64,000 nucleotides of DNA, taken from positions 13,222-77,221 of the forward strand of contig CAYUXY010000003.1 in assembly GCA_964449245.1 (NCBI GenBank), in the 5' to 3' direction. The position numbers and the translations under genes were made by a program. The stretch comes from an uncultured Candidatus Saccharibacteria bacterium. GTDB lineage: Bacteria > Patescibacteriota > Minisyncoccia > UBA6257 > GWB1-50-10. Below are positions 2,538-62,415 of the stretch, in pieces (positions within the stretch are counted from its first letter, which is position 1; the number at the start of each line of letters is the position of its first letter). The notes beneath the pieces are model-generated. The model worked only from the letters and a program-made list of their open reading frames with translations, made no database searches and was not told the origin of the DNA.

Positions 2538-3737
2538 TTATTTTGTAATTTTTACAACCGCTCCGGCTCCTACAGTCTTTCCTCCTTCGCGGATAGCGAA
2601 ACGCTGTTTTTCTTCGAGAGCAACTGGAGAAATCAGTTTGACGTTAATGTTAATAGTGTCTCCAGGCATAACCATTTCAACTCCTTCCGGAAGAATTACT
2701 TCTCCGGTAACATCCGTTGTGCCAATGTAAAATTGCGGTTTATATCCCTTGAAAAACGGCGTATGTCGTCCGCCCTCTTCTTTCGACAAAACAACAACTT
2801 CGGCTTCAAATTCGGTATGAGGAGTTACTGATCCTGGCTTTGCGAGAACTTGTCCGCGTTCTATATCTTCTTTCTTAAGTCCGCGAAGCAAAATTCCAAC
2901 GTTATCGCCAGCCTGTCCGGAATCAAGAGTTTTTTGGAACATTTCCACTCCGGTTACAACTGTTTTTTGCGTCGGACGCAATCCGATAAGCTCGACTTCG
3001 TCGTTAATCTTAACAATTCCGCGCTCTATTCTTCCTGTGCAGACCGTTCCACGGCCTTCAATTGAGAAAATATCCTCAACGGGCATAAGAAATGGCTGGT
3101 CAATCTTTCTTACCGGTTCAGGAATATAATCATCCATAGCCTTCACGAGCTCAAGAATCGGCTTTGCAGCTTCATCATCGCCTGATGCCGCTTCAAGGGC
3201 CTTTAAGGCTGAACCCTTTACGACAGGAGCATTATCTCCGTCAAAGTTATATTTCTTAAGGAGTTCGCGAACTTCTGATTCAACGAGTTCAATGAGCTCC
3301 GGATCATCAACCATATCAACCTTGTTTAAAAACACTATGATCGCCGGTACGCCAACTTGTCGCGCAAGCAAAATATGCTCTCTTGTTTGAGGCATTGGTC
3401 CGTCTGCCGCCGAAACAACAAGCACAGCTCCGTCCATCTGAGCAGCGCCGGTAATCATGTTTTTGATGTAATCGGCGTGACCAGGGGCATCGATGTGGGC
3501 ATAATGACGCTTTTCTGATTCGTATTCGGAGTGATGCAAAGCTATAGTGATTCCGCGAACTCTCTCTTCCGGAGCGTTATCAATAACTGCGACTCCTTCT
3601 TCTTTCTTAGCAAGACCTTTCATATGAAGGACGTGAGTGATGGCCGCGGTAAGCGTAGTCTTTCCGTGGTCTACGTGTCCTATTGTTCCAATATTTACGT
3701 GCGGTTTGGAACGCTCAAACTTTTCTTTTTCTGCCAT
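2538..3737 (-). CDS. tuf: elongation factor Tu
   Basis: 399 aa; [47 protein letters not shown], full-length EF-Tu. Confidence 0.95.
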
Positions 3738-22149: not shown

Positions 22150-24045
22150 TTAAATTTTTGAATCTAAGTTTTTCAAGGCCTCCTCAATTTCGGACTGCAG
22201 ATCTTCAACTTTTTTACCATCTTCCTTTATGCGTGGATTTTTTTCTTTCATCTCCTGCTCCTGAAGATCGGATAATTTAATTACCGGACCCTCTTCTTTT
22301 TTTAACGCCTCTTCCGGTTCAATGGGCTCATTCTTTTTTGCGCCCTGCGGATTCGCGCGTTCAATGCGTTTTTTCTCCGGCTTTTTAGGCTCTTGTGTTT
22401 TTTGGCTATTACCTCGCTCATCTGCTTCAGAAAATTCTATGCCAAGCATAGCAAGATCTTTATGTGTTTCTTTTGGTTTGGGTTTGAAATTCGGAAGTCG
22501 TACGGGACGAATTTCGCCAGCTTTTAATTTCTTCAGACAATCCTGACAATATACGGACCTTCCCTCTTCAGGCTCAAACGGAACAGTCGTCTCATTTCCG
22601 CACGCCGAGCAAGTAACAGTCCGCGATCCTCCGCTTCCTGACATTTCTGCCATACCGCTCCATTTATTAATCTCGTCTTCCACTTGCCACCTTGGACGCG
22701 CGTATTTCTTTCTCGATATTTCAACTATTCTCTCAGAACTTCCCGCGTCCTTAGGGCCATGAAACGGCGGGAGTGTCGAGGCGGAAAATGGCCTCGATGA
22801 AATCCCATCCACCATAAGCTTTATATAAATACTTCTGTTGGGAATGTTGACCATATCTTGTATTACAAAATCCGGACCAAATTCTTTTTCAAGAAATTCC
22901 GCGTCCGACGCTCCAACGCGAAACGCAATCATAGTTCCAACGTTGCCAAAAACGGCATCGCGCACTTTTGTTGATGTATCCGATACGAGCTGGCCTATAT
23001 ACTGATGCGCAAGAATAAGATTCAATCGATATTTTCGCGCTTCAGAAAGAATGTTCGCAAAAGCATCCGTAGCAAAATTTTGAAACTCGTCTATATAAAG
23101 AAAAAAGTCGACGCGCTCATCTTCCCTAATACGCACTCTTTCCATAGCGGCGAGTTGCATCTTTGTTATAAGCATTGAGCCGAGAAGCGCGGAATTGTCC
23201 TCTCCTACCCTTCCTTTTGACAGGTTGACAAGAAATATTTTTGCCGTGTTCATTATCTCAAACACGTCAATAGTACTCTTTGATTGACCTATAATGTTTC
23301 GAATAACTGTCGTCGAAAGAAACTGCCCTACTTTGTTTTGTATAGGCGCTATCGCCTCATTTCTAAATTGATCTCTCCACTCTTCGAATTCGTGCACCCA
23401 AAAAGATTTTATAACGGGGTCTTTTACATTTGCTATAATTTTTTCTCTGTATTCCTTATCAACTAAAAGTCTCGTAACACCGAGCAAAGACGTACCCGGA
23501 GTGTCGAGTAACGCGAGTACGGTGTTATTCATTATGTATTCCATTCTCGCCGACCACACATTAGCCCATATCTTTGTGAAAATTCCCATAAGTCCGGAGG
23601 CTACAAGGTGTTTGTATTTCGGATCCGGAAGTTCAAGAACGTTGAAACCTATGTGATATTCGGTATCGGCTGGGTTAAAATATATAACATCTTCTTCTCT
23701 CTCGACTGGAATTTTTTGGAGTAAAGTTTCGACAAATTCTCCGTGCGGGTCAATTACGCAAACACCCTCCCCATTTAAAATATCCTGCACCATCATATTA
23801 TGGAGCAGGGTTGTTTTTCCTGTGCCGGTTTTTCCGACAACATACATATGTTGTCTGCGATCGGTTCGCTTTATGCCGAAAAGCCGATTTGAGTTTCTAA
23901 AATCGGTTTTAGCGAAATATACTACATCTTTCTCCGGCTCTATACTTATCATATTCTTTGCAAATCGCGATACATTGATTATATCCTTTTTGTCCACAAA
24001 AAACAGCACGCGCCGCTTTCGCGGCGAGTACAAACTTATGCCCAA
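22150..24045 (-). CDS. VirD4/TraG/TraD-like type IV coupling-protein ATPase with C-terminal zinc ribbon and K/E-rich tail
   Basis: 631 aa; Walker A YVVGKTGTGKTTLL and DPHGE; Walker B-like FLYIDEFQNF; C-terminal CSACGN...YCQDC then ~120 aa of K/E/P low complexity; the ORF-track start at 24045 is a TTG codon, so the true start is uncertain. Confidence 0.65.
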   Translation of the reverse strand: MGISLYSPRKRRVLFFVDKKDIINVSRFAKNMISIEPEKDVVYFAKTDFRNSNRLFGIKRTDRRQHMYVVGKTGTGKTTLLHNMMVQDILNGEGVCVIDPHGEFVETLLQKIPVEREEDVIYFNPADTEYHIGFNVLELPDPKYKHLVASGLMGIFTKIWANVWSARMEYIMNNTVLALLDTPGTSLLGVTRLLVDKEYREKIIANVKDPVIKSFWVHEFEEWRDQFRNEAIAPIQNKVGQFLSTTVIRNIIGQSKSTIDVFEIMNTAKIFLVNLSKGRVGEDNSALLGSMLITKMQLAAMERVRIREDERVDFFLYIDEFQNFATDAFANILSEARKYRLNLILAHQYIGQLVSDTSTKVRDAVFGNVGTMIAFRVGASDAEFLEKEFGPDFVIQDMVNIPNRSIYIKLMVDGISSRPFSASTLPPFHGPKDAGSSERIVEISRKKYARPRWQVEDEINKWSGMAEMSGSGGSRTVTCSACGNETTVPFEPEEGRSVYCQDCLKKLKAGEIRPVRLPNFKPKPKETHKDLAMLGIEFSEADERGNSQKTQEPKKPEKKRIERANPQGAKKNEPIEPEEALKKEEGPVIKLSDLQEQEMKEKNPRIKEDGKKVEDLQSEIEEALKNLDSKI

Positions 24046-29488: not shown

Positions 29489-30352
29489 CTAATCCTGATA
29501 AAGAATGAAATCCATAACCTTATCAAACGTGCTTTTCTTCGGCGGAATATGTCCTGATGTTTTAAATATTTCGTGCATCTTGTTTCTCGCTTCGCTTGCT
29601 CCTTTTTTAATTATTTCCTCCGCATCCGCGAAATGAAAAAGCTTGTACCCTAAAACAGGTGGCGCAATTACAACATCCGCGCCGGCAAGAATTTTTCTCG
29701 ATAGCTGGTGCCCGATAATCGAGAGGGCGTAAGGCATTACCGCATAAATTTTTGTCGGACTGAAAAAATCAGTTTCTTCAAAATTAAGCCACCTTGACGA
29801 TACATCGACAGCTATCACAAAATCCGCTCCCATATCGCGCGCAACGTTCGCAGGAATCGGATTAACGAGCCCTCCGTCCATAAGCAATCTTCCTCCGGTT
29901 TTCACGGGAGGGAAAACGATCGGTATTGCAGAAGATGCGCGTATCGCTTCACTCAAATTTCCTTTTTTTATTATTACCTCATCGCCGTTTTCAACATCTG
30001 TCGCAACAGCCGAAAAAGGAATTTTACAATCGTCTATTTTTATCCCCTCTATCATCTTTTCGAGCTCCTGCATCAAATGATTTTTAAAAATCGCTCCGTC
30101 TTTTTTTCTAATCATTCTGAAAACCGGATAGATGTCCTTATGCCGTAATTTCATAAAAAATTTTTCAATGAGCGCTATGTCTTTCGTCGCCGCATAAAAT
30201 CCGCCGATCAAGGCGCCCATACTTGTACCGGATATAAAACTGATTTCGATTCCGGCGCGCTCAAGCTCTTTAATTACTCCGATATGCGCGAGCCCTTTTG
30301 CCGCTCCGCCTCCGAGAGCAAGACCTATTTTTTTCGGTTTCTTTGCTGACAT
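29489..30352 (-). CDS. patatin-like phospholipase
   Basis: 287 aa; GGGAAKGLAHIGVIKEL oxyanion hole and GTSMGALIG serine motif. Confidence 0.85.
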   Translation of the reverse strand: MSAKKPKKIGLALGGGAAKGLAHIGVIKELERAGIEISFISGTSMGALIGGFYAATKDIALIEKFFMKLRHKDIYPVFRMIRKKDGAIFKNHLMQELEKMIEGIKIDDCKIPFSAVATDVENGDEVIIKKGNLSEAIRASSAIPIVFPPVKTGGRLLMDGGLVNPIPANVARDMGADFVIAVDVSSRWLNFEETDFFSPTKIYAVMPYALSIIGHQLSRKILAGADVVIAPPVLGYKLFHFADAEEIIKKGASEARNKMHEIFKTSGHIPPKKSTFDKVMDFILYQD

Positions 30353-30405: not shown

Positions 30406-30897
30406 TTATTTATTTTTCCGGACGACAGCGAGAACGGCAATCGCCACCGAAATCACCTGTGTTCCGAAAAAGAAAAACTGCTCTTTTTCGAAGAACACAA
30501 AACCGGTTAATAGATGCACAAATGCATATATTAACCAGCCGGTTCTTTCGGTTTTGGCTTTTGACAGTAATTTTGTCCCTATCAAAAAGCCTACAGATGC
30601 CGATAACTCCGCGATAGTTAAAGCTCCGGCAAACGCCATAAAGGCAATCGCCGTCATAATAACTATCACGAGACAGTCTACCGTCCTCTCCACACTTTTC
30701 CGAGACGGGAACAAAAACTGCGCTCCCATCTGGAAAAATGTTCCTAATTCTAAAATGGAATAGATATATAATCCTATTCCAAAAAAATAGGAGACGGAAA
30801 GTGCGCCGGCTATTGCCCCCGCGAACCATCCGGAAGGTTTTCTCATAAATAAAAGAACCTTGTTTATAAGAAAAACAACGGCAACGATTATTTCCAT
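30406..30897 (-). CDS. hypothetical polytopic membrane protein
   Basis: 163 aa, 4-5 predicted TM helices; AGGAGG SD 6 nt upstream. Confidence 0.5.
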   Translation of the reverse strand: MEIIVAVVFLINKVLLFMRKPSGWFAGAIAGALSVSYFFGIGLYIYSILELGTFFQMGAQFLFPSRKSVERTVDCLVIVIMTAIAFMAFAGALTIAELSASVGFLIGTKLLSKAKTERTGWLIYAFVHLLTGFVFFEKEQFFFFGTQVISVAIAVLAVVRKNK

Positions 30898-30941
30898 TCG
30901 TTGCCTCCTTTCGTTAATTAAAGATTAAATTTTCTAAACTT

Positions 30942-30970
30942 GTTATACAATAAATACTTGATTCAGTCAA
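30942..30970 (-). promoter_or_regulatory. promoter for 30406..30897 (TTGACT-17-TATAAC)
   Basis: Minus-strand TTGACTgaat (30965-30970) and TATAAC (30942-30947); the same TTGACTgaat -35 context recurs at 31366-31371. Confidence 0.4.
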
Positions 30971-31014
30971 ATTCGATGAAATAAAAATCGAGCCGGAATT
31001 GCTTCCGGCATTTT

Positions 31015-31113
31015 CTAATGGCCGGAGTGTATTAACAACACAACAGCCAAATAGATTATTGAGGATCCAGTTACTAAACACCACGACAGGACCCTTATTT
31101 CTTTTTCTTCCAT
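31015..31113 (-). CDS. 32-aa hydrophobic micro-protein (MEEKEIRVLSWCLVTGSSIIYLAVVLLIHSGH)
   Basis: Not in ORF track (<60 aa). AGGAAAGG SD 6 nt upstream; own promoter TTGACT (31165-31170)/TATATA (31145-31150); hairpin gccggaattgcttccggc + T-run terminator downstream. Confidence 0.4.
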   Translation of the reverse strand: MEEKEIRVLSWCLVTGSSIIYLAVVLLIHSGH

Positions 31114-31144
31114 AAAAATCCTTTCCTAAAATTCTGGTTTAGGT

Positions 31145-31170
31145 ATATATTAAAAATTTGTTTTAGTCAA
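31145..31170 (-). promoter_or_regulatory. promoter for micro-ORF 31015..31113
   Basis: TTGACT then TATATA on minus strand (spacer ~15). Confidence 0.3.
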
Positions 31171-31183
31171 GCATAAAAACGCG

Positions 31184-31208
31184 CAGGGTCGGAACAATTT
31201 CGACCCTG
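31184..31208. terminator. bidirectional hairpin terminator
   Basis: cagggtcg-gaacaattt-cgaccctg 8-bp stem, flanked by attttttaa on plus strand and cgcgttttta on minus strand. Confidence 0.45.
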
Positions 31209-31213
31209 ATTTT

Positions 31214-31312
31214 TTAATGGGCCCATTGCAATAAAGATATCGCAATGGCCACTAAGAAAACGAGTTGGAAAACAGCAAATTTCCACTCATTTTCTTTTGT
31301 TATTTTTTGCAT
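31214..31312 (-). CDS. 32-aa hydrophobic micro-protein (MQKITKENEWKFAVFQLVFLVAIAISLLQWAH), paralog of 31015..31113
   Basis: Same length and architecture (charged N-term, one TM, C-terminal His); GGAGGG SD; promoter TTGACT-17-TATATA (31343-31371); terminator hairpin at 31184-31208. Confidence 0.4.
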   Translation of the reverse strand: MQKITKENEWKFAVFQLVFLVAIAISLLQWAH

Positions 31313-31342
31313 AATACCCTCCAATTTAAAAATCCTAATTTA

Positions 31343-31371
31343 TATATAAAATTATTTACGAATTCAGTCAA
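31343..31371 (-). promoter_or_regulatory. promoter for micro-ORF 31214..31312 (TTGACT-17-TATATA)
   Basis: Minus-strand TTGACT at 31366-31371, 17-nt spacer, TATATA at 31343-31348. Confidence 0.4.
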
Positions 31372-31418
31372 ATGTAAAAACAATTAGAGCCGGGGATTTA
31401 TTTCCGGCTCTAAAATTT

Positions 31419-31592
31419 TCACTGCGCCATGAGCCTCAATACCTCCTCCCGCAACTGCGGCGGAATCATGAAATATGTAGCGATGGCGGTTATCAAAAAC
31501 CCCAAAACCATTCCTGCCAACAACATCAGCAATAAATCTGAAATTCCCCATTCTTTGGCAGGAGGTTCCTGCCATTTTTTATTGTTTCTCAT
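31419..31592 (-). CDS. 57-aa single-TM micro-protein (MRNNKKWQEPPAKEWGISDLLLMLLAGMVLGFLITAIATYFMIPPQLREEVLRLMAQ)
   Basis: Frame differs from the ORF-track 63-aa call 31384..31575; preferred because of GGAGTAGGAGA SD, a consensus promoter and a clear TM helix; terminator hairpin agagccgg...ccggctct + T-run downstream (31385-31412). Confidence 0.35.
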   Translation of the reverse strand: MRNNKKWQEPPAKEWGISDLLLMLLAGMVLGFLITAIATYFMIPPQLREEVLRLMAQ

Positions 31593-31634
31593 TCTCCTAC
31601 TCCATATTTAAATGATTAATAAGTTCTGTTTGCA

Positions 31635-31662
31635 ATTATACCACAAAATACCGATTTGTCAA
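31635..31662 (-). promoter_or_regulatory. consensus sigma70 promoter TTGACA-16-TATAAT for micro-ORF 31419..31592
   Basis: Minus-strand TTGACA (31657-31662) inside palindrome ccgatTTGTCAatcgg; TATAAT at 31635-31640. Confidence 0.45.
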
Positions 31663-31762
31663 TCGGCTGTGGGTGAATTCTCATGCTCATTACACTTTTA
31701 TCTTTCTACTTTAATCTTTTCTGCCTACGGCAGATCTCCCGTAGGGAGACATCTCTCTACTT

Positions 31763-34294
31763 CTATTTCTTAAGCACCTTCCTCAAATACTCTCCCGTAA
31801 AGCTTCCCGCGAGGCGAGAAATATGCTCCGGAGTTCCCTCGCCTACGATATACCCGCCCTTGTCTCCCCCTTCAGGGCCGAGATCTATCACCCAGTCCGC
31901 CGTTTTAATTACATCAAGATTGTGCTCGATTACGACTACTGTATTTCCCCTATCCACGAGCTTATGCAAAACCTCAAGAAGCTTTTTAACATCATGAAAA
32001 TGAAGCCCCGTTGTCGGCTCGTCCAAAAGATAAATGGTATTCCTTGTATCGCGTTTCCCGAGTTCCGCACCGAGCTTTACTCTCTGCGCTTCTCCGCCTG
32101 ATAAGGTCGTAGCTGATTGCCCGAGTTTTAAGTATCCAAGCCCAACATCGTTTAATACTTTCAATCTGTCTTCAAGCCAAGGTATGTCGTTAAAGAAACG
32201 CGTAGCTTCTTCTATCGTCATTTCGAGCACTTCGTATATATTTTTCTTCCTGTATTTTACCTCGAGCGTTTCCCTGTCGAATCTCTTTCCTTTGCATACG
32301 TCGCATTCGACATACACGGTAGGCAAAAAGTGCATTTCAATAGCAATCACTCCGTGACCTTCGCAGTTTTCGCATCTTCCTCCTTTAACATTAAAGCTGA
32401 ATCTTCCGGGCTTATACCCTCTTACCCGCGCATCTTCGCTTCCCGCGAAAAGATCGCGTATATGCGTCCACGCGCCAACATAAGTTGCGGGATTCGAGCG
32501 CGGAGTTCTTCCTATCGGCGACTGATCTATATTTATAACGCGCGTAATATGTTCGAGCCCAGTCATTCCTTTATGCACCCCCGGAACAAAACTTGAGCCG
32601 TTCAATTTATTTGCGAGCGTTTTCCAAAGCACATCATAAACGAGAGTGCTTTTCCCCGAACCGGAAACTCCTGTAACGGCTACAAATCTACGAAGCGGAA
32701 TTTTTACATTTATATTTTGCAGATTGTTTTCGCTTATCCCTTTTATTTCAAGAAAATCATTTCTCCCGTCTTTGTCTATATTTACTATCCTTCTCTTTTC
32801 CGGCAACGGAACAAACTCTTCCCCGCGAAGATACTGAAGCGTAAGAGAATTTTTGCTCTTATCTTTCAAAATTTCAGGAATTTTACCTTCAGCGACCACA
32901 TTCCCTCCGTGTATTCCCGCGGCCGGACCTATATCAACGAGATAGTCCGACGAGCGGATTGTATCTTCATCGTGCTCGACGACTATTACGGTATTCCCTA
33001 AATCGCGTAATTCTATAAGCGTACCTATCAACTTTTCGTTATCTTTTTGATGCAAGCCTATTGTCGGCTCATCAAGAATATAAAGCGTTCCGGTAAGTCG
33101 CGACCCTATTTGCGAAGCGAGCCTTATTCTCTGCGCTTCACCGCCCGACAAAGTTCCTGCTTTTCGCTCCAGCGTAAGATATTCGAGCCCCACGTCAATC
33201 ATAAATTTCAAACGGTTTTTGATTTCTCTTAACGGGACTTCGGCAACATCCGAAAACTTTTTATTTTTTGTTTTTTCCACTTCTTCGAAAAATGCGTAGG
33301 CTTCTTTGATAGACATAGCCGACACGTTTGCAATGTTTTTTCCTTTTATTAACACGTTTAAGGCTTCTTCTTTAAGCCTTTTGCCGGCGCATACTTCGCA
33401 GACTTTCTCCGACCAAACATTTTCAACTCCAAGCCCGTGACAAGCTTCGCACGCTCCATACGGGCTATTAAACGAGAAAAGCCTCGGCTCTATTTCTGGA
33501 AATGAAAATCCGTCCTCGGGGCAGGTAAATTTTGCCGAAAGAGACACTTCGTTTTCCGTAATAACAGTAATCACGCCATTGCCGTATTTTAGCGCAGACT
33601 CAATAGCTTCAGACAAACGTAAACGCGTATCTTTATCTTTAAAGTCGAGCCCATAAGGCATCCTGTCTATGAGCAGGTCTATGGAGTGTTTTTTATTTCT
33701 ATCAAGCTCTATCCTATCGCGTAAAGAACAAAATTTCCCGTCTATCTTCGCTTCCGAATATCCGGCGTTTAAAAAATCATAAAGCATCTGATAATATTCC
33801 CCTTTCCTGCCTCTCACAACGGGAGCGAGAATAAGCATATTTCTTTTATTTACATTTTCTGCGGATATTTGAACCGCAACGTCCACTATCTCTTCATTCG
33901 TCAGTTTTTTAATTTCCTTCCCGCAGTTCGGGCAATGCGGAGTGCCGACACGGGCGAATAAAACACGGAGATAATCATAAATCTCCGTTATCGTTGCAAC
34001 GGTTGAGCGCGGGTTCGCGGAATGGCTTTTCTGGTCTATCGATATTGCCGGAGAAAGCCCTTCTATTTCGTCTACATCTGGCTTGCTTAATCTTCCCAAA
34101 AACTGCCGAGCGTATGCGGAAAGAGATTCTATGTATCTCCTCTGCCCTTCGGCAAAAATAGTATCAAATGCGAGAGAAGACTTGCCAGAACCCGAAAGTC
34201 CGGTAAACACTATCATTTTGTTTCGAGGAATTTCGAGATTAATGTTCTTTAAATTATGCTCGCGAGCACCTCGTATTATTATTTTATCGTTCAT
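31763..34294 (-). CDS. uvrA: excinuclease ABC subunit A
   Basis: 843 aa; two ABC ATPase modules ([14 protein letters not shown] and [11 protein letters not shown]), zinc-finger Cys clusters, LSGGEAQR signature x2. Confidence 0.9.
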
Positions 34295-37224: not shown

Positions 37225-37881
37225 TTAAAACTTCGGTTTTTTGATGACCTGCACAACCTTCCCGTTTATCATAAAATCATCGTTTTCGTGGATATAAATA
37301 GGAGGGAAATTTTTAGTAGATTCCGACATTAATACAACTTGCCTGTTTTCTTTATCCAAAAAGAACTTTTTGATATTAGCCATTCCGTCGATAATAGAAA
37401 GCACAATATCACCGTTTCTCGGATGTTTTTCATTTAAATCTATAATCACATAATCCCCGTCTTCTATTCTCTTGCCATTGATTTTCGCTCGGTTCATACT
37501 CGGCCCATTTACCTGTAGCGCAAAGAAACGATGCTCGCCTTTTATTGATCTATCGAGTAGCGTGCTCGATATCCGCAAGAATCCCTCGACATTCGTTTCT
37601 GCAAAAATTTGCGCCGGACCGGCATTCACGGATCCTAATATAGGCACGGACAAAATTTTCCCCATTCCCATAATTCCCTTCTGCCACTCTTGTTCGTTCT
37701 TTTTTATCATTCCTTTTACCTTGTCAATTCTTAAAAGTCCCTTCTTTTCAAGCTCGCCTAAATGATGCTTTATCTTCTGTGGCGACTCTTCTCCTATAAA
37801 CGAGCCGATTTCTCTAAGAGAAAACTGCCCTAAATTTTTTTCCCGCGCGAGTTTTAATAATTGTTCTTGTATTTTGTGCAT
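37225..37881 (-). CDS. lexA: LexA repressor
   Basis: 218 aa; N-terminal winged HTH, GPSM serine and K in S24 peptidase domain (VNGPSMNRAKI...IKKFF). Confidence 0.85.
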   Translation of the reverse strand: MHKIQEQLLKLAREKNLGQFSLREIGSFIGEESPQKIKHHLGELEKKGLLRIDKVKGMIKKNEQEWQKGIMGMGKILSVPILGSVNAGPAQIFAETNVEGFLRISSTLLDRSIKGEHRFFALQVNGPSMNRAKINGKRIEDGDYVIIDLNEKHPRNGDIVLSIIDGMANIKKFFLDKENRQVVLMSESTKNFPPIYIHENDDFMINGKVVQVIKKPKF

Positions 37882-37892
37882 ACCGTTATTGT

Positions 37893-37930
37893 AGCATATT
37901 TTTACGGAAATGGGTCAATATGCCGTAAAA
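37893..37930 (-). promoter_or_regulatory. lexA promoter elements overlapped by an inverted repeat (candidate SOS operator)
   Basis: TTTTACGG (37900-37907) - N15 - CCGTAAAA (37923-37930) overlaps -35-like TTGACC (37913-37918) and -10-like TATGCT/TACAAT just upstream of the lexA ATG. Confidence 0.3.
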
Positions 37931-62103: not shown

Positions 62104-62213
62104 GCTGGCTAGAAACAAAAATCTGCTAGCCAGCGATCTCTTGCGAGACCCATACGAGTTTCCCCGTATGACGCTCAAACGTGCTCTGACTAGCAGATTT
62201 CTACGTTTGAGCG
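62104..62213. repeat. cluster of inverted repeats upstream of serine recombinase (candidate attachment/recombination site)
   Basis: gctggctag-N13-ctagccagc (62104-62134); catacg-N8-cgtatg (62151-62170); cgctcaaacgt-N20-acgtttgagcg (62172-62213); atctgctag / ctagcagat inverted pair. Confidence 0.3.
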
Positions 62214-62415
62214 TTTTAAGACCATGCCGCCAGACGAATCCGAGGGTTTAGGTCCCGCCTTACCGCTAAGTAAGGCTATTCAGTTGTTAATCCAATTTTA
62301 CCGCAATTCGACCTTTGAATCCATTACTCGCTTACTTCGGGATTTAAGTAAAGTAAGTTATCCACTTAGGACGTATGGACTTATCCGGTGGGTTCCGGCT
62401 TTGTTGTGTTGTATG

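Follow-up and report, generated by a model that had tools for sequence, protein, structure and literature searches.

Bacterial small membrane proteins such as KdpF, CydX, AcrZ and MgtS bind larger membrane proteins, while the type I toxin arrays (ldr/rdl, ibs/sib, aapA/isoA and tisB/istR) are built of tandem units for small hydrophobic peptides; some type I toxin families are linked to the SOS response. Both classes are resembled by an array of three micro open reading frames (micro-ORFs) in a 64,000-nucleotide (nt) stretch of DNA of an uncultured Candidatus Saccharibacteria bacterium (contig CAYUXY010000003.1), referred to hereafter as the window. The array occupies an 865-nt gap (30898-31762) between uvrA (31763-34294) and a gene for a membrane protein of 163 amino acids (aa) (30406-30897); all of these lie on the minus strand, as do the features described below unless stated otherwise. 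With KdpF, CydX, AcrZ and MgtS the array has in common a peptide length of 30-60 aa, a single hydrophobic helix, a Shine-Dalgarno sequence (SD) for each gene, omission by standard annotation and a location that is sometimes beside the gene of the partner. It differs from them in showing no sequence similarity, in being organized as three monocistronic units with their own promoter and terminator, and in consisting of lineage-specific orphans. The type I toxin arrays are matched in the small hydrophobic peptides, the tandem units and the structured mRNA (that of unit 2); the array is unlike them in that an antisense RNA gene is not detectable, no toxin family is matched, the promoters are strong and constitutive-looking, and the peptides carry no basic C-terminal tail. 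Unannotated genes for small membrane proteins are already known as a kind, of which the three peptides, p1, p2 and p3, would be new orphan members. Such proteins are systematically missed, and almost nothing is known of them in bacteria of the Candidate Phyla Radiation (CPR), whose host-membrane interface is central to their lifestyle; the present locus offers three strongly signalled candidates, two of them unannotated.

The signals in the gap suggest, with moderate confidence, that it holds three monocistronic genes, each encoding a small single-pass membrane protein and each driven by a copy of the promoter and leader of the neighbouring 163-aa gene, termed PnuC-like below. The gap, which is the widest in the densely packed window on an ORF-based gene map, would accommodate, in this lineage only, three autonomous micro-transcription units in tandem; in each, a sigma-70-type promoter and an SD-bearing leader of 20-35 nt would precede a short ORF, with an intrinsic terminator behind it. 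Units 3, 2 and 1 would be translated into membrane micro-proteins of 57, 32 and 32 aa, respectively, with the charged N-terminus predicted by the positive-inside rule to be cytoplasmic and the helix reaching almost to the C-terminus. These micro-proteins would be made together with the PnuC-like transporter, because the units reuse its unusual expression signals. As a working guess they may act as small accessory or modulator subunits in the membrane, a membrane-perturbing (toxin-like) role being the main, less likely alternative.

The coordinates and translations of the three micro-ORFs (p1, 31015-31113; p2, 31214-31312; p3, 31419-31592), proposed in an earlier note on this DNA, were verified, and promoter, SD, ORF and terminator follow one another in canonical order in all three units. 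The number of such arrangements expected by chance was estimated from 5000 dinucleotide-preserving shuffles of the 865-nt gap. An SD followed by an ATG and an ORF of at least 30 aa occurs on average 0.18 times per strand in the shuffled sequences, and the probability of three or more is 4 × 10−4. When a hydrophobic 19-mer (Kyte-Doolittle hydropathy of at least 2.0) is also demanded, the mean in the shuffles falls to 0.002 as compared to the three observed. The array signals are real and lie far beyond chance.

The promoters are clustered here as well. The pattern TTGAC-N17-19-TATA occurs at four sites when both strands of the window are scanned (1.62 expected). Every one of them is on the minus strand between 30944 and 31662, with one site in front of each micro-ORF and the fourth in front of the 163-aa gene. 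The promoter of unit 3, with its upstream TG, agrees with the consensus at 12 of 12 positions and is the sole exact consensus promoter in the window, whereas P1 and P2 match at only about 9 of 12; the earlier description of a near-consensus promoter before each ORF therefore stands for the presence of the promoters and for P3, and is too generous for P1 and P2. The reuse of the −35 context, also claimed earlier, was borne out: the window contains two exact copies of TTGACTGAAT, one at P2 and the other at the promoter of the 163-aa gene, and no more. The same is true of the SDs, GGAG(TAGGAGA) for p3, GGAGGG for p2 and AGGAAAGGA for p1, which lie about 4-7 nt from the respective ATGs, and of the terminators, since within 6-10 nt of the end of each micro-ORF come a G+C-rich hairpin and a T-run. 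Together with a further hairpin at 31556-31574, the gap contains four of the six best terminator-like hairpins detected in a 13-kb scan. On the minus strand the scan lists T1 alone; T2 and T3 are listed on the plus strand, where G-T pairs lengthen their stems. The minus-strand loop of T3 is 10 nt, beyond the loop limit of the scan, and the T-run of T2 begins 4 nt past the stem.

In the direction of transcription, the gap begins directly past the uvrA stop codon with two abutting 15-nt palindromes (TCTCCCtacGGGAGA and TCTGCCgtaGGCAGA, 31720-31749), possibly the 3' hairpin of uvrA or the upstream edge of an inserted block. Two Logan contigs carrying the array (L001 and L002, from SRR8925737 and SRR8925738) stop at window positions of about 31688 and 31745, at the upstream edge of the array and its double palindrome; these ends could reflect an assembly break at the hairpin or a strain-level structural polymorphism. 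Unit 3 comprises P3 (TTGACA-16-(TG)TATAAT, 31635-31662), an SD region (GGAGTAGGAGA, 31593-31603) whose first GGAG lies 7 nt ahead of the ATG, the 57-aa ORF, with a basic N-terminus, one transmembrane (TM) helix and a short amphipathic C-terminal helix, and terminator T3 (31384-31413), followed by TTGTTTTT and bearing T-runs on both strands. Overlapping the −35 box of P3 at 31651-31666 is CCGATTtgtcAATCGG, a perfect 6+6 palindrome that recurs nowhere else in the window and has near-matches at chance level only; it could be an operator or repressor site. The hairpin at 31556-31574 lies within the p3 ORF, at its 5' end, and is terminator-like on the plus strand. Unit 2 has P2 (TTGACT-17-TATATA, 31343-31371), an SD at 31317-31322, 4 nt ahead of the ATG, the 32-aa ORF with one TM helix and T2 (31184-31208), whose minus-strand T-run comes after CGCG. 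Unit 1 has P1 (TTGACT-17-TATACC, alternatively 15-TATATA; 31142-31170), an SD at 31119-31127, an ORF again of 32 aa with one TM helix, and T1 (30992-31009), in which the hairpin is followed by TCGATTTTTA and the arms are similar to those of T3. Beyond it lie P0, the promoter of the PnuC-like gene (TTGACT-17-TATAAC, 30942-30970), and that gene with its SD AAGGAGG (SD 30904-30910; gene and SD together 30406-30910).

The SDs stand out against the rest of the window. In 39 ATG-start genes, G makes up 3-15% and A about 50% of the positions from −15 to −1. SD cores are seen near the starts of 12 of 58 genes when any candidate start is counted, and are no commoner there than at internal in-frame start codons (13.7%). 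A strong SD precedes genuine starts only in the PnuC-like gene, p1 and p2, with p3 having GGAG at 7 nt, and the PnuC-like gene is the sole ordinary-sized gene of the window that starts behind a strong SD. The genome thus appears to be SD-independent outside this four-gene cluster. The cluster is an outlier in both transcription and translation signals; the only canonical promoter/SD/terminator modules of the 64 kb are clustered here, apparently copied from the transporter gene. In about 10 of these 39 genes a −10-like hexamer stands 4-12 nt ahead of the ATG, as TACAAT does 6 nt ahead of that of lexA (37225-37881), and the mRNAs of such genes may be leaderless. The literature on SD usage and on small proteins in CPR bacteria yielded no directly relevant paper.

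The name PnuC-like was chosen because the hits to the Pfam family NMN_transporter (PnuC, PF04973) are consistent, although below threshold. The 163-aa protein scores 21.7 bits (gathering score 27.3) over profile positions 3-171 of 175, and its homologues, the one at related locus L003 and P0006, score 17.9 and 17.5 bits. A search of metagenome contigs with the PnuC-like protein gave no match. A closer relative from JGI (L083; 3300035208, Ga0376279_0148306) encodes a protein 66% identical to it on a 1.46-kb contig that starts inside the gene, and its spacer between the PnuC-like and patatin genes is, by eye, nearly identical to that of the window.

The predicted peptides have the character of membrane proteins. 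The maximum 19-aa Kyte-Doolittle values of p1, p2 and p3 are 2.10, 2.21 and 2.65, respectively, and the N-termini of all three bear K or R. Their codon log-odds are all positive (3.7, 3.2 and 9.4), as is the score of the rival frame of unit 3, and negative values were obtained for all six other gap ORFs that were scored, of which four lie on the plus strand and two on the minus. The predicted folds leave the start regions of p1 and p2 free of base pairing. Genes on the plus strand of the gap were considered and rejected, as the ORFs there are without SD and have negative codon scores; truncated N-terminal fragments of the PnuC-like protein were rejected as well, no similarity being seen by eye.

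The earlier note had pointed to a conflict of frame in the third ORF, and the conflict is real. NCBI annotates p3 in the 57-aa frame and leaves p1 and p2 unannotated; the rival frame of unit 3 is 63 aa long and is called as 55 aa in the Logan gene calls. In the p3 frame the SD is at the right distance, the TM helix reaches a hydropathy of 2.65 and the stop codon lies 6 nt ahead of the terminator. The rival frame has a maximum hydropathy of 0.72, is without SD, and runs through the stem of T3 to end inside it. Because SD distance, TM helix and the distance of the stop from the terminator all fit, the 57-aa frame chosen earlier is favoured over the rival of 63 or 55 aa.

Comparison with related loci places the array in an evolutionary frame. 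The organism is a CPR bacterium of the Patescibacteria/Paceibacteria type. Its best uvrA matches come from metagenome-assembled genomes labelled Jorgensenbacteria, Paceibacterota, Liptonbacteria and similar, with a maximum identity of 84%. Across the comparison set of 80 related uvrA loci the order uvrA-(PnuC-like)-patatin-uvrC recurs, and nothing like p1, p2, p3 or the array DNA is found in them, tblastn giving chance-level hits only; tblastn of the three peptides against the rest of the window likewise gave only chance-level hits. Two relatives retain the PnuC-like gene, L003 (uvrA 84% identical) and L015 (81%). Its promoter begins 5 nt past the uvrA stop in L003 and about 110 nt past it in L015, and reads TTGACA...TATAAC/T; the leader behind it is 35-40 nt long and has GAGGT or GGAGG at its end. 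P0 is orthologous to this promoter directly after uvrA. The PnuC-like gene is therefore the ancestral owner of the canonical module, to which this lineage has added the 865-nt block. Other small accessory genes follow the PnuC-like gene in the uvrA-uvrC interval of the two relatives (L003, 9128-9709; L015, about 3150-3700), namely a membrane ORF of 85-95 aa and an ORF of 63 aa that has a TTGACA promoter and a terminator to itself. Among the relatives, this interval gives the impression of a variable islet made up of small accessory genes.

The resemblance of the units to the PnuC-like module suggests how they may have arisen. The promoter/leader of unit 3 aligns with the PnuC-like leaders of the relatives (z = 3.6 and 5.2) and with the window's own P0 leader (z = 4.8), and the leaders of the PnuC-like orthologues align with each other no better than with that of unit 3. 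For the unit 2 promoter/leader, alignment gives z = 3.1 with P0 and z = 3.8 with unit 1; alignments of the unit 1 promoter/leader with P0, unit 3 and the relatives' leaders are not significant (z = 1.2-1.7). A YAGRA motif lies 6-7 nt past the −10 box in all six leaders compared, and the −35 boxes of P2, P1 and P0 are spaced 200-201 nt apart. Tandem Repeats Finder detected no array. Units 1 and 2 are weakly alike as DNA, with z = 4.8 overall, 3.2-3.7 per segment and 57-61% identity with frame-breaking gaps; their ORFs are equal in length with short in-register matches, and the ungapped nucleotide identity of 41/99 is without codon-position pattern. At the peptide level, p1 and p2 are not more similar than chance (Smith-Waterman score of 19 as compared to 17.7 ± 3.5 in shuffles, p = 0.35), and the earlier view of the two as clear paralogs could not be upheld. 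Judged from the alignments and the spacing, the most likely origin of the units is that the PnuC-like gene had its promoter/leader module duplicated locally and more than once; the similarities are weak, and shared functional signals could mimic homology among units. A mobile element was rejected as the source, since the sole terminal inverted repeat listed is a 10-nt AT-rich pair at chance level by estimate.

A bolder extension, which we put forward tentatively and consider unlikely, is that a canonical module was copied three times beside its parent gene in an SD-independent, reduced genome, and that the copies are de novo births of membrane micro-proteins, perhaps working with the PnuC-like transporter and the patatin-like phospholipase in scavenging from the host. 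The likeness to de novo or proto-gene emergence from duplicated regulatory DNA lies in orphan ORFs missing in close relatives, in the promoter/leader similarity to the neighbouring control region, and in hydrophobic T-rich peptides typical of young ORFs. The difference is that duplication is read here from weak similarity (z of 3-5) and the 200-nt spacing, intermediate states not being observed. If true, this would be gene birth by duplication of a regulatory module, caught in the act.

Homologues of the peptides were sought widely. As a protein, p3 is known solely from the NCBI annotation of a 94-kb contig; when 1.84 billion representatives were searched exhaustively with phmmer, nothing was recovered but p3 itself and a repeat protein (P0004), which was judged spurious on account of its low-complexity repeat and want of a TM helix. 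A word-indexed search with p3 gave no homologue, and a search with the rival 63-aa frame gave only the identical Logan call. p1 and p2, being too short for protein search, were sought by degenerate DNA patterns in metagenome and viral contigs; neither these scans nor a p3 scan of viral contigs gave a match, and blastn of the array against phages and plasmids was equally negative. In Pfam and NCBIfam there is no hit for p1 or p2 and only sub-threshold ones for p3, PADLOC and PDB hold no significant match for the array peptides, and PHROGs gave no match with E < 0.07. Rfam 15 finds nothing in the array region at gathering score, and at E ≤ 10 the best hits are at most 24 bits, far under the cut-offs. 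The best Pfam hit of p3 is UPF0154/YneF (PF03672), with E = 0.005 over residues 21-56 and 17.1 bits as compared to a gathering score of 27.1; the NCBIfam YneF model (PRK01844) gives 13.2 bits with a cut-off of 135. YneF and p3 are alike in being small and in having a single TM helix, after which come a turn containing Pro and a short helix. They are unlike in that the scores are sub-threshold and the exhaustive search with p3 recovered no YneF-like protein, and the likeness is probably driven by the TM helix.

Several observations weigh against three genes for membrane micro-proteins. No homologue of any peptide exists in the collections searched, so that conservation and the ratio of non-synonymous to synonymous substitution offer no evidence; the only other copies of the array, on the two Logan contigs, are 100% identical to the window. 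The codon scores of p1 and p2 fall between those of real genes (8.0 ± 4.3) and stop-free off-frames (−3.2 ± 5.3), and in unit 3 codon usage does not decide, p3 scoring 9.4 bits and the 63-aa frame 11.5. A working SD in a genome that ignores SDs is an assumption whose sole basis is the conserved SD of the PnuC-like gene, and the tie to the PnuC-like protein consists of adjacency and shared signals only. The RNA of unit 2 is a further point. Its transcript folds at −53.9 kcal mol−1 (z = −5.1), and the p2 ORF at −38.4 kcal mol−1 (z = −6.8) as compared to −27.6 for the antisense strand; from codon 6 on, the ORF RNA forms two long hairpins that take up nearly the whole ORF. Such structure is extreme for a coding region. 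G-U pairs make the fold of the transcribed strand the stronger one, an indication that selection has acted on the RNA, and the purine-rich 5' arm and pyrimidine-rich 3' arm of the first hairpin alone would encode a peptide that is charged and then hydrophobic. The units, or at least unit 2, might accordingly be small non-coding or dual-function RNAs of about 160-250 nt that act via stem-loops, the ORFs being incidental or secondary. Overlapping palindromes fit this possibility, as do peptides p1 and p2 that cannot be aligned and regulatory and flanking DNA of units 1 and 2 that is as similar as the ORF DNA, whose alignment needs frame-breaking gaps. We nevertheless consider RNAs of this kind unlikely, given that structure is not exceptional in units 1 and 3 (z of −1.8 and −1.4 for the ORFs), that an Rfam match is missing even at E ≤ 10, and that no target complementarity was identified. 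An SD, an ATG and a TM-grade ORF stopping just short of the terminator in three of three units would be very improbable by chance, and SD-like G-rich motifs are otherwise avoided in the leaders of this genome. The units might instead be young proto-genes or neutral DNA generated by duplication of the promoter module, perhaps transcribed and translated, and without selected function. The absence of the array from all 80 related loci, including the closest, the orphan status and intermediate codon scores of the peptides, the variability of the uvrA-uvrC interval, and the many inverted repeats, typical of recently generated sequence, agree with such an origin. It is somewhat less likely still than the RNA possibility. 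Against it stands the survival of the widest gap in a tightly packed 64 kb, with four promoters, three SDs and three terminators intact and three frames open despite a stop-codon density of about 7%; moreover, strong unregulated expression of hydrophobic peptides would be costly if useless.

The toxin, holin and bacteriocin/immunity guesses of the earlier note gained no positive evidence, whereas its underlying view of a small-membrane-peptide cassette is retained in the form of three separately signalled hydrophobic ORFs with a single helix each. Type I toxin-antitoxin modules, in which membrane-depolarising toxins would be checked by antisense RNAs and which might be SOS-linked, are improbable. 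The peptide length of 32-57 aa, the single TM helix and the tandem layout do resemble the ldr, ibs and aapA arrays; the terminators have T-runs on both strands, the hairpin at the 5' end of p3 is terminator-like on the plus strand, the mRNA of unit 2 is highly structured with a 14-nt complementarity between its 5' and 3' parts, and lexA, uvrA and uvrC are nearby. However, the plus-strand promoter-like sites from which antisense RNAs might start (31032-31059 and 31325-31352) match the consensus at only 9 of 12 positions, and the total of the promoter scan is at chance level (35 as compared to 28.6 ± 5.3 expected over 13 kb). Toxin families such as Hok, Ldr, Fst, TisB, Ibs, ShoB, TxpA, BsrG and AapA are unmatched in Pfam and NCBIfam, the promoters on the toxin side are strong or consensus and share no LexA-type box with lexA or uvrA, the basic C-terminal tail that is frequent in such toxins is missing from the peptides, and units of 200 nt offer little space for a second gene. 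A holin-like role, also raised earlier, finds no counterpart in PHROGs, in the phage and viral-contig searches or in the gene context, which is not that of a phage. Leader peptides or attenuators serving the PnuC-like gene, or secreted bacteriocin or RiPP (ribosomally synthesized and post-translationally modified peptide) precursors serving export, would account for a series of short ORFs that precede a transporter-like gene and point the same way. They are the most improbable of these explanations: every ORF has its own promoter and terminator, as the PnuC-like gene has its own promoter, an alternative antiterminator fold was not seen, the peptides contain no double-glycine or other leader motif, and no modification enzyme, ABC exporter or immunity gene is found among the Pfam-scanned neighbours. 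Three genes for single-pass membrane micro-proteins are preferred to these explanations. If the peptides are made, the locus would provide a compact system for SD-led as compared to SD-independent initiation in one cell, and for the birth of micro-genes; if they are not made, it would be a cautionary case of perfect-looking gene signals without conservation.

The neighbours of the array are uvrA, the PnuC-like gene, the patatin gene and uvrC, with lexA 5.5 kb away. The adjacency to SOS genes noted earlier is thus correct; an operator or LexA-type box common to the array promoters and lexA or uvrA was not found, and the SOS link is one of adjacency only. The palindrome TACGG-N15-CCGTA occurs at 37903-37927, across the lexA promoter, and at 2350-2374, and TACGG-N8-CCGTA at 31726-31743, past the uvrA stop. 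These three matches (0.26 expected), of which the lexA and post-uvrA ones differ in spacing, may be boxes for a regulator, perhaps LexA, or RNA hairpins. No modification, export, immunity or phage genes are present among the Pfam-scanned neighbours. The 'phospholipase effector' models of PADLOC, too, are matched, at 46 bits, by the patatin-like phospholipase gene (29489-30352, minus strand), which adjoins the cluster. Encoded 7 kb off (22150-24045, minus strand) is a coupling protein of the VirD4/TrwB type that carries a treble-clef zinc finger. The sole Rfam hit of the window is a full-length match to the LOOT RNA family (RF03000) at 62135-62254 on the minus strand, with 87.3 bits as compared to a gathering score of 46.4.

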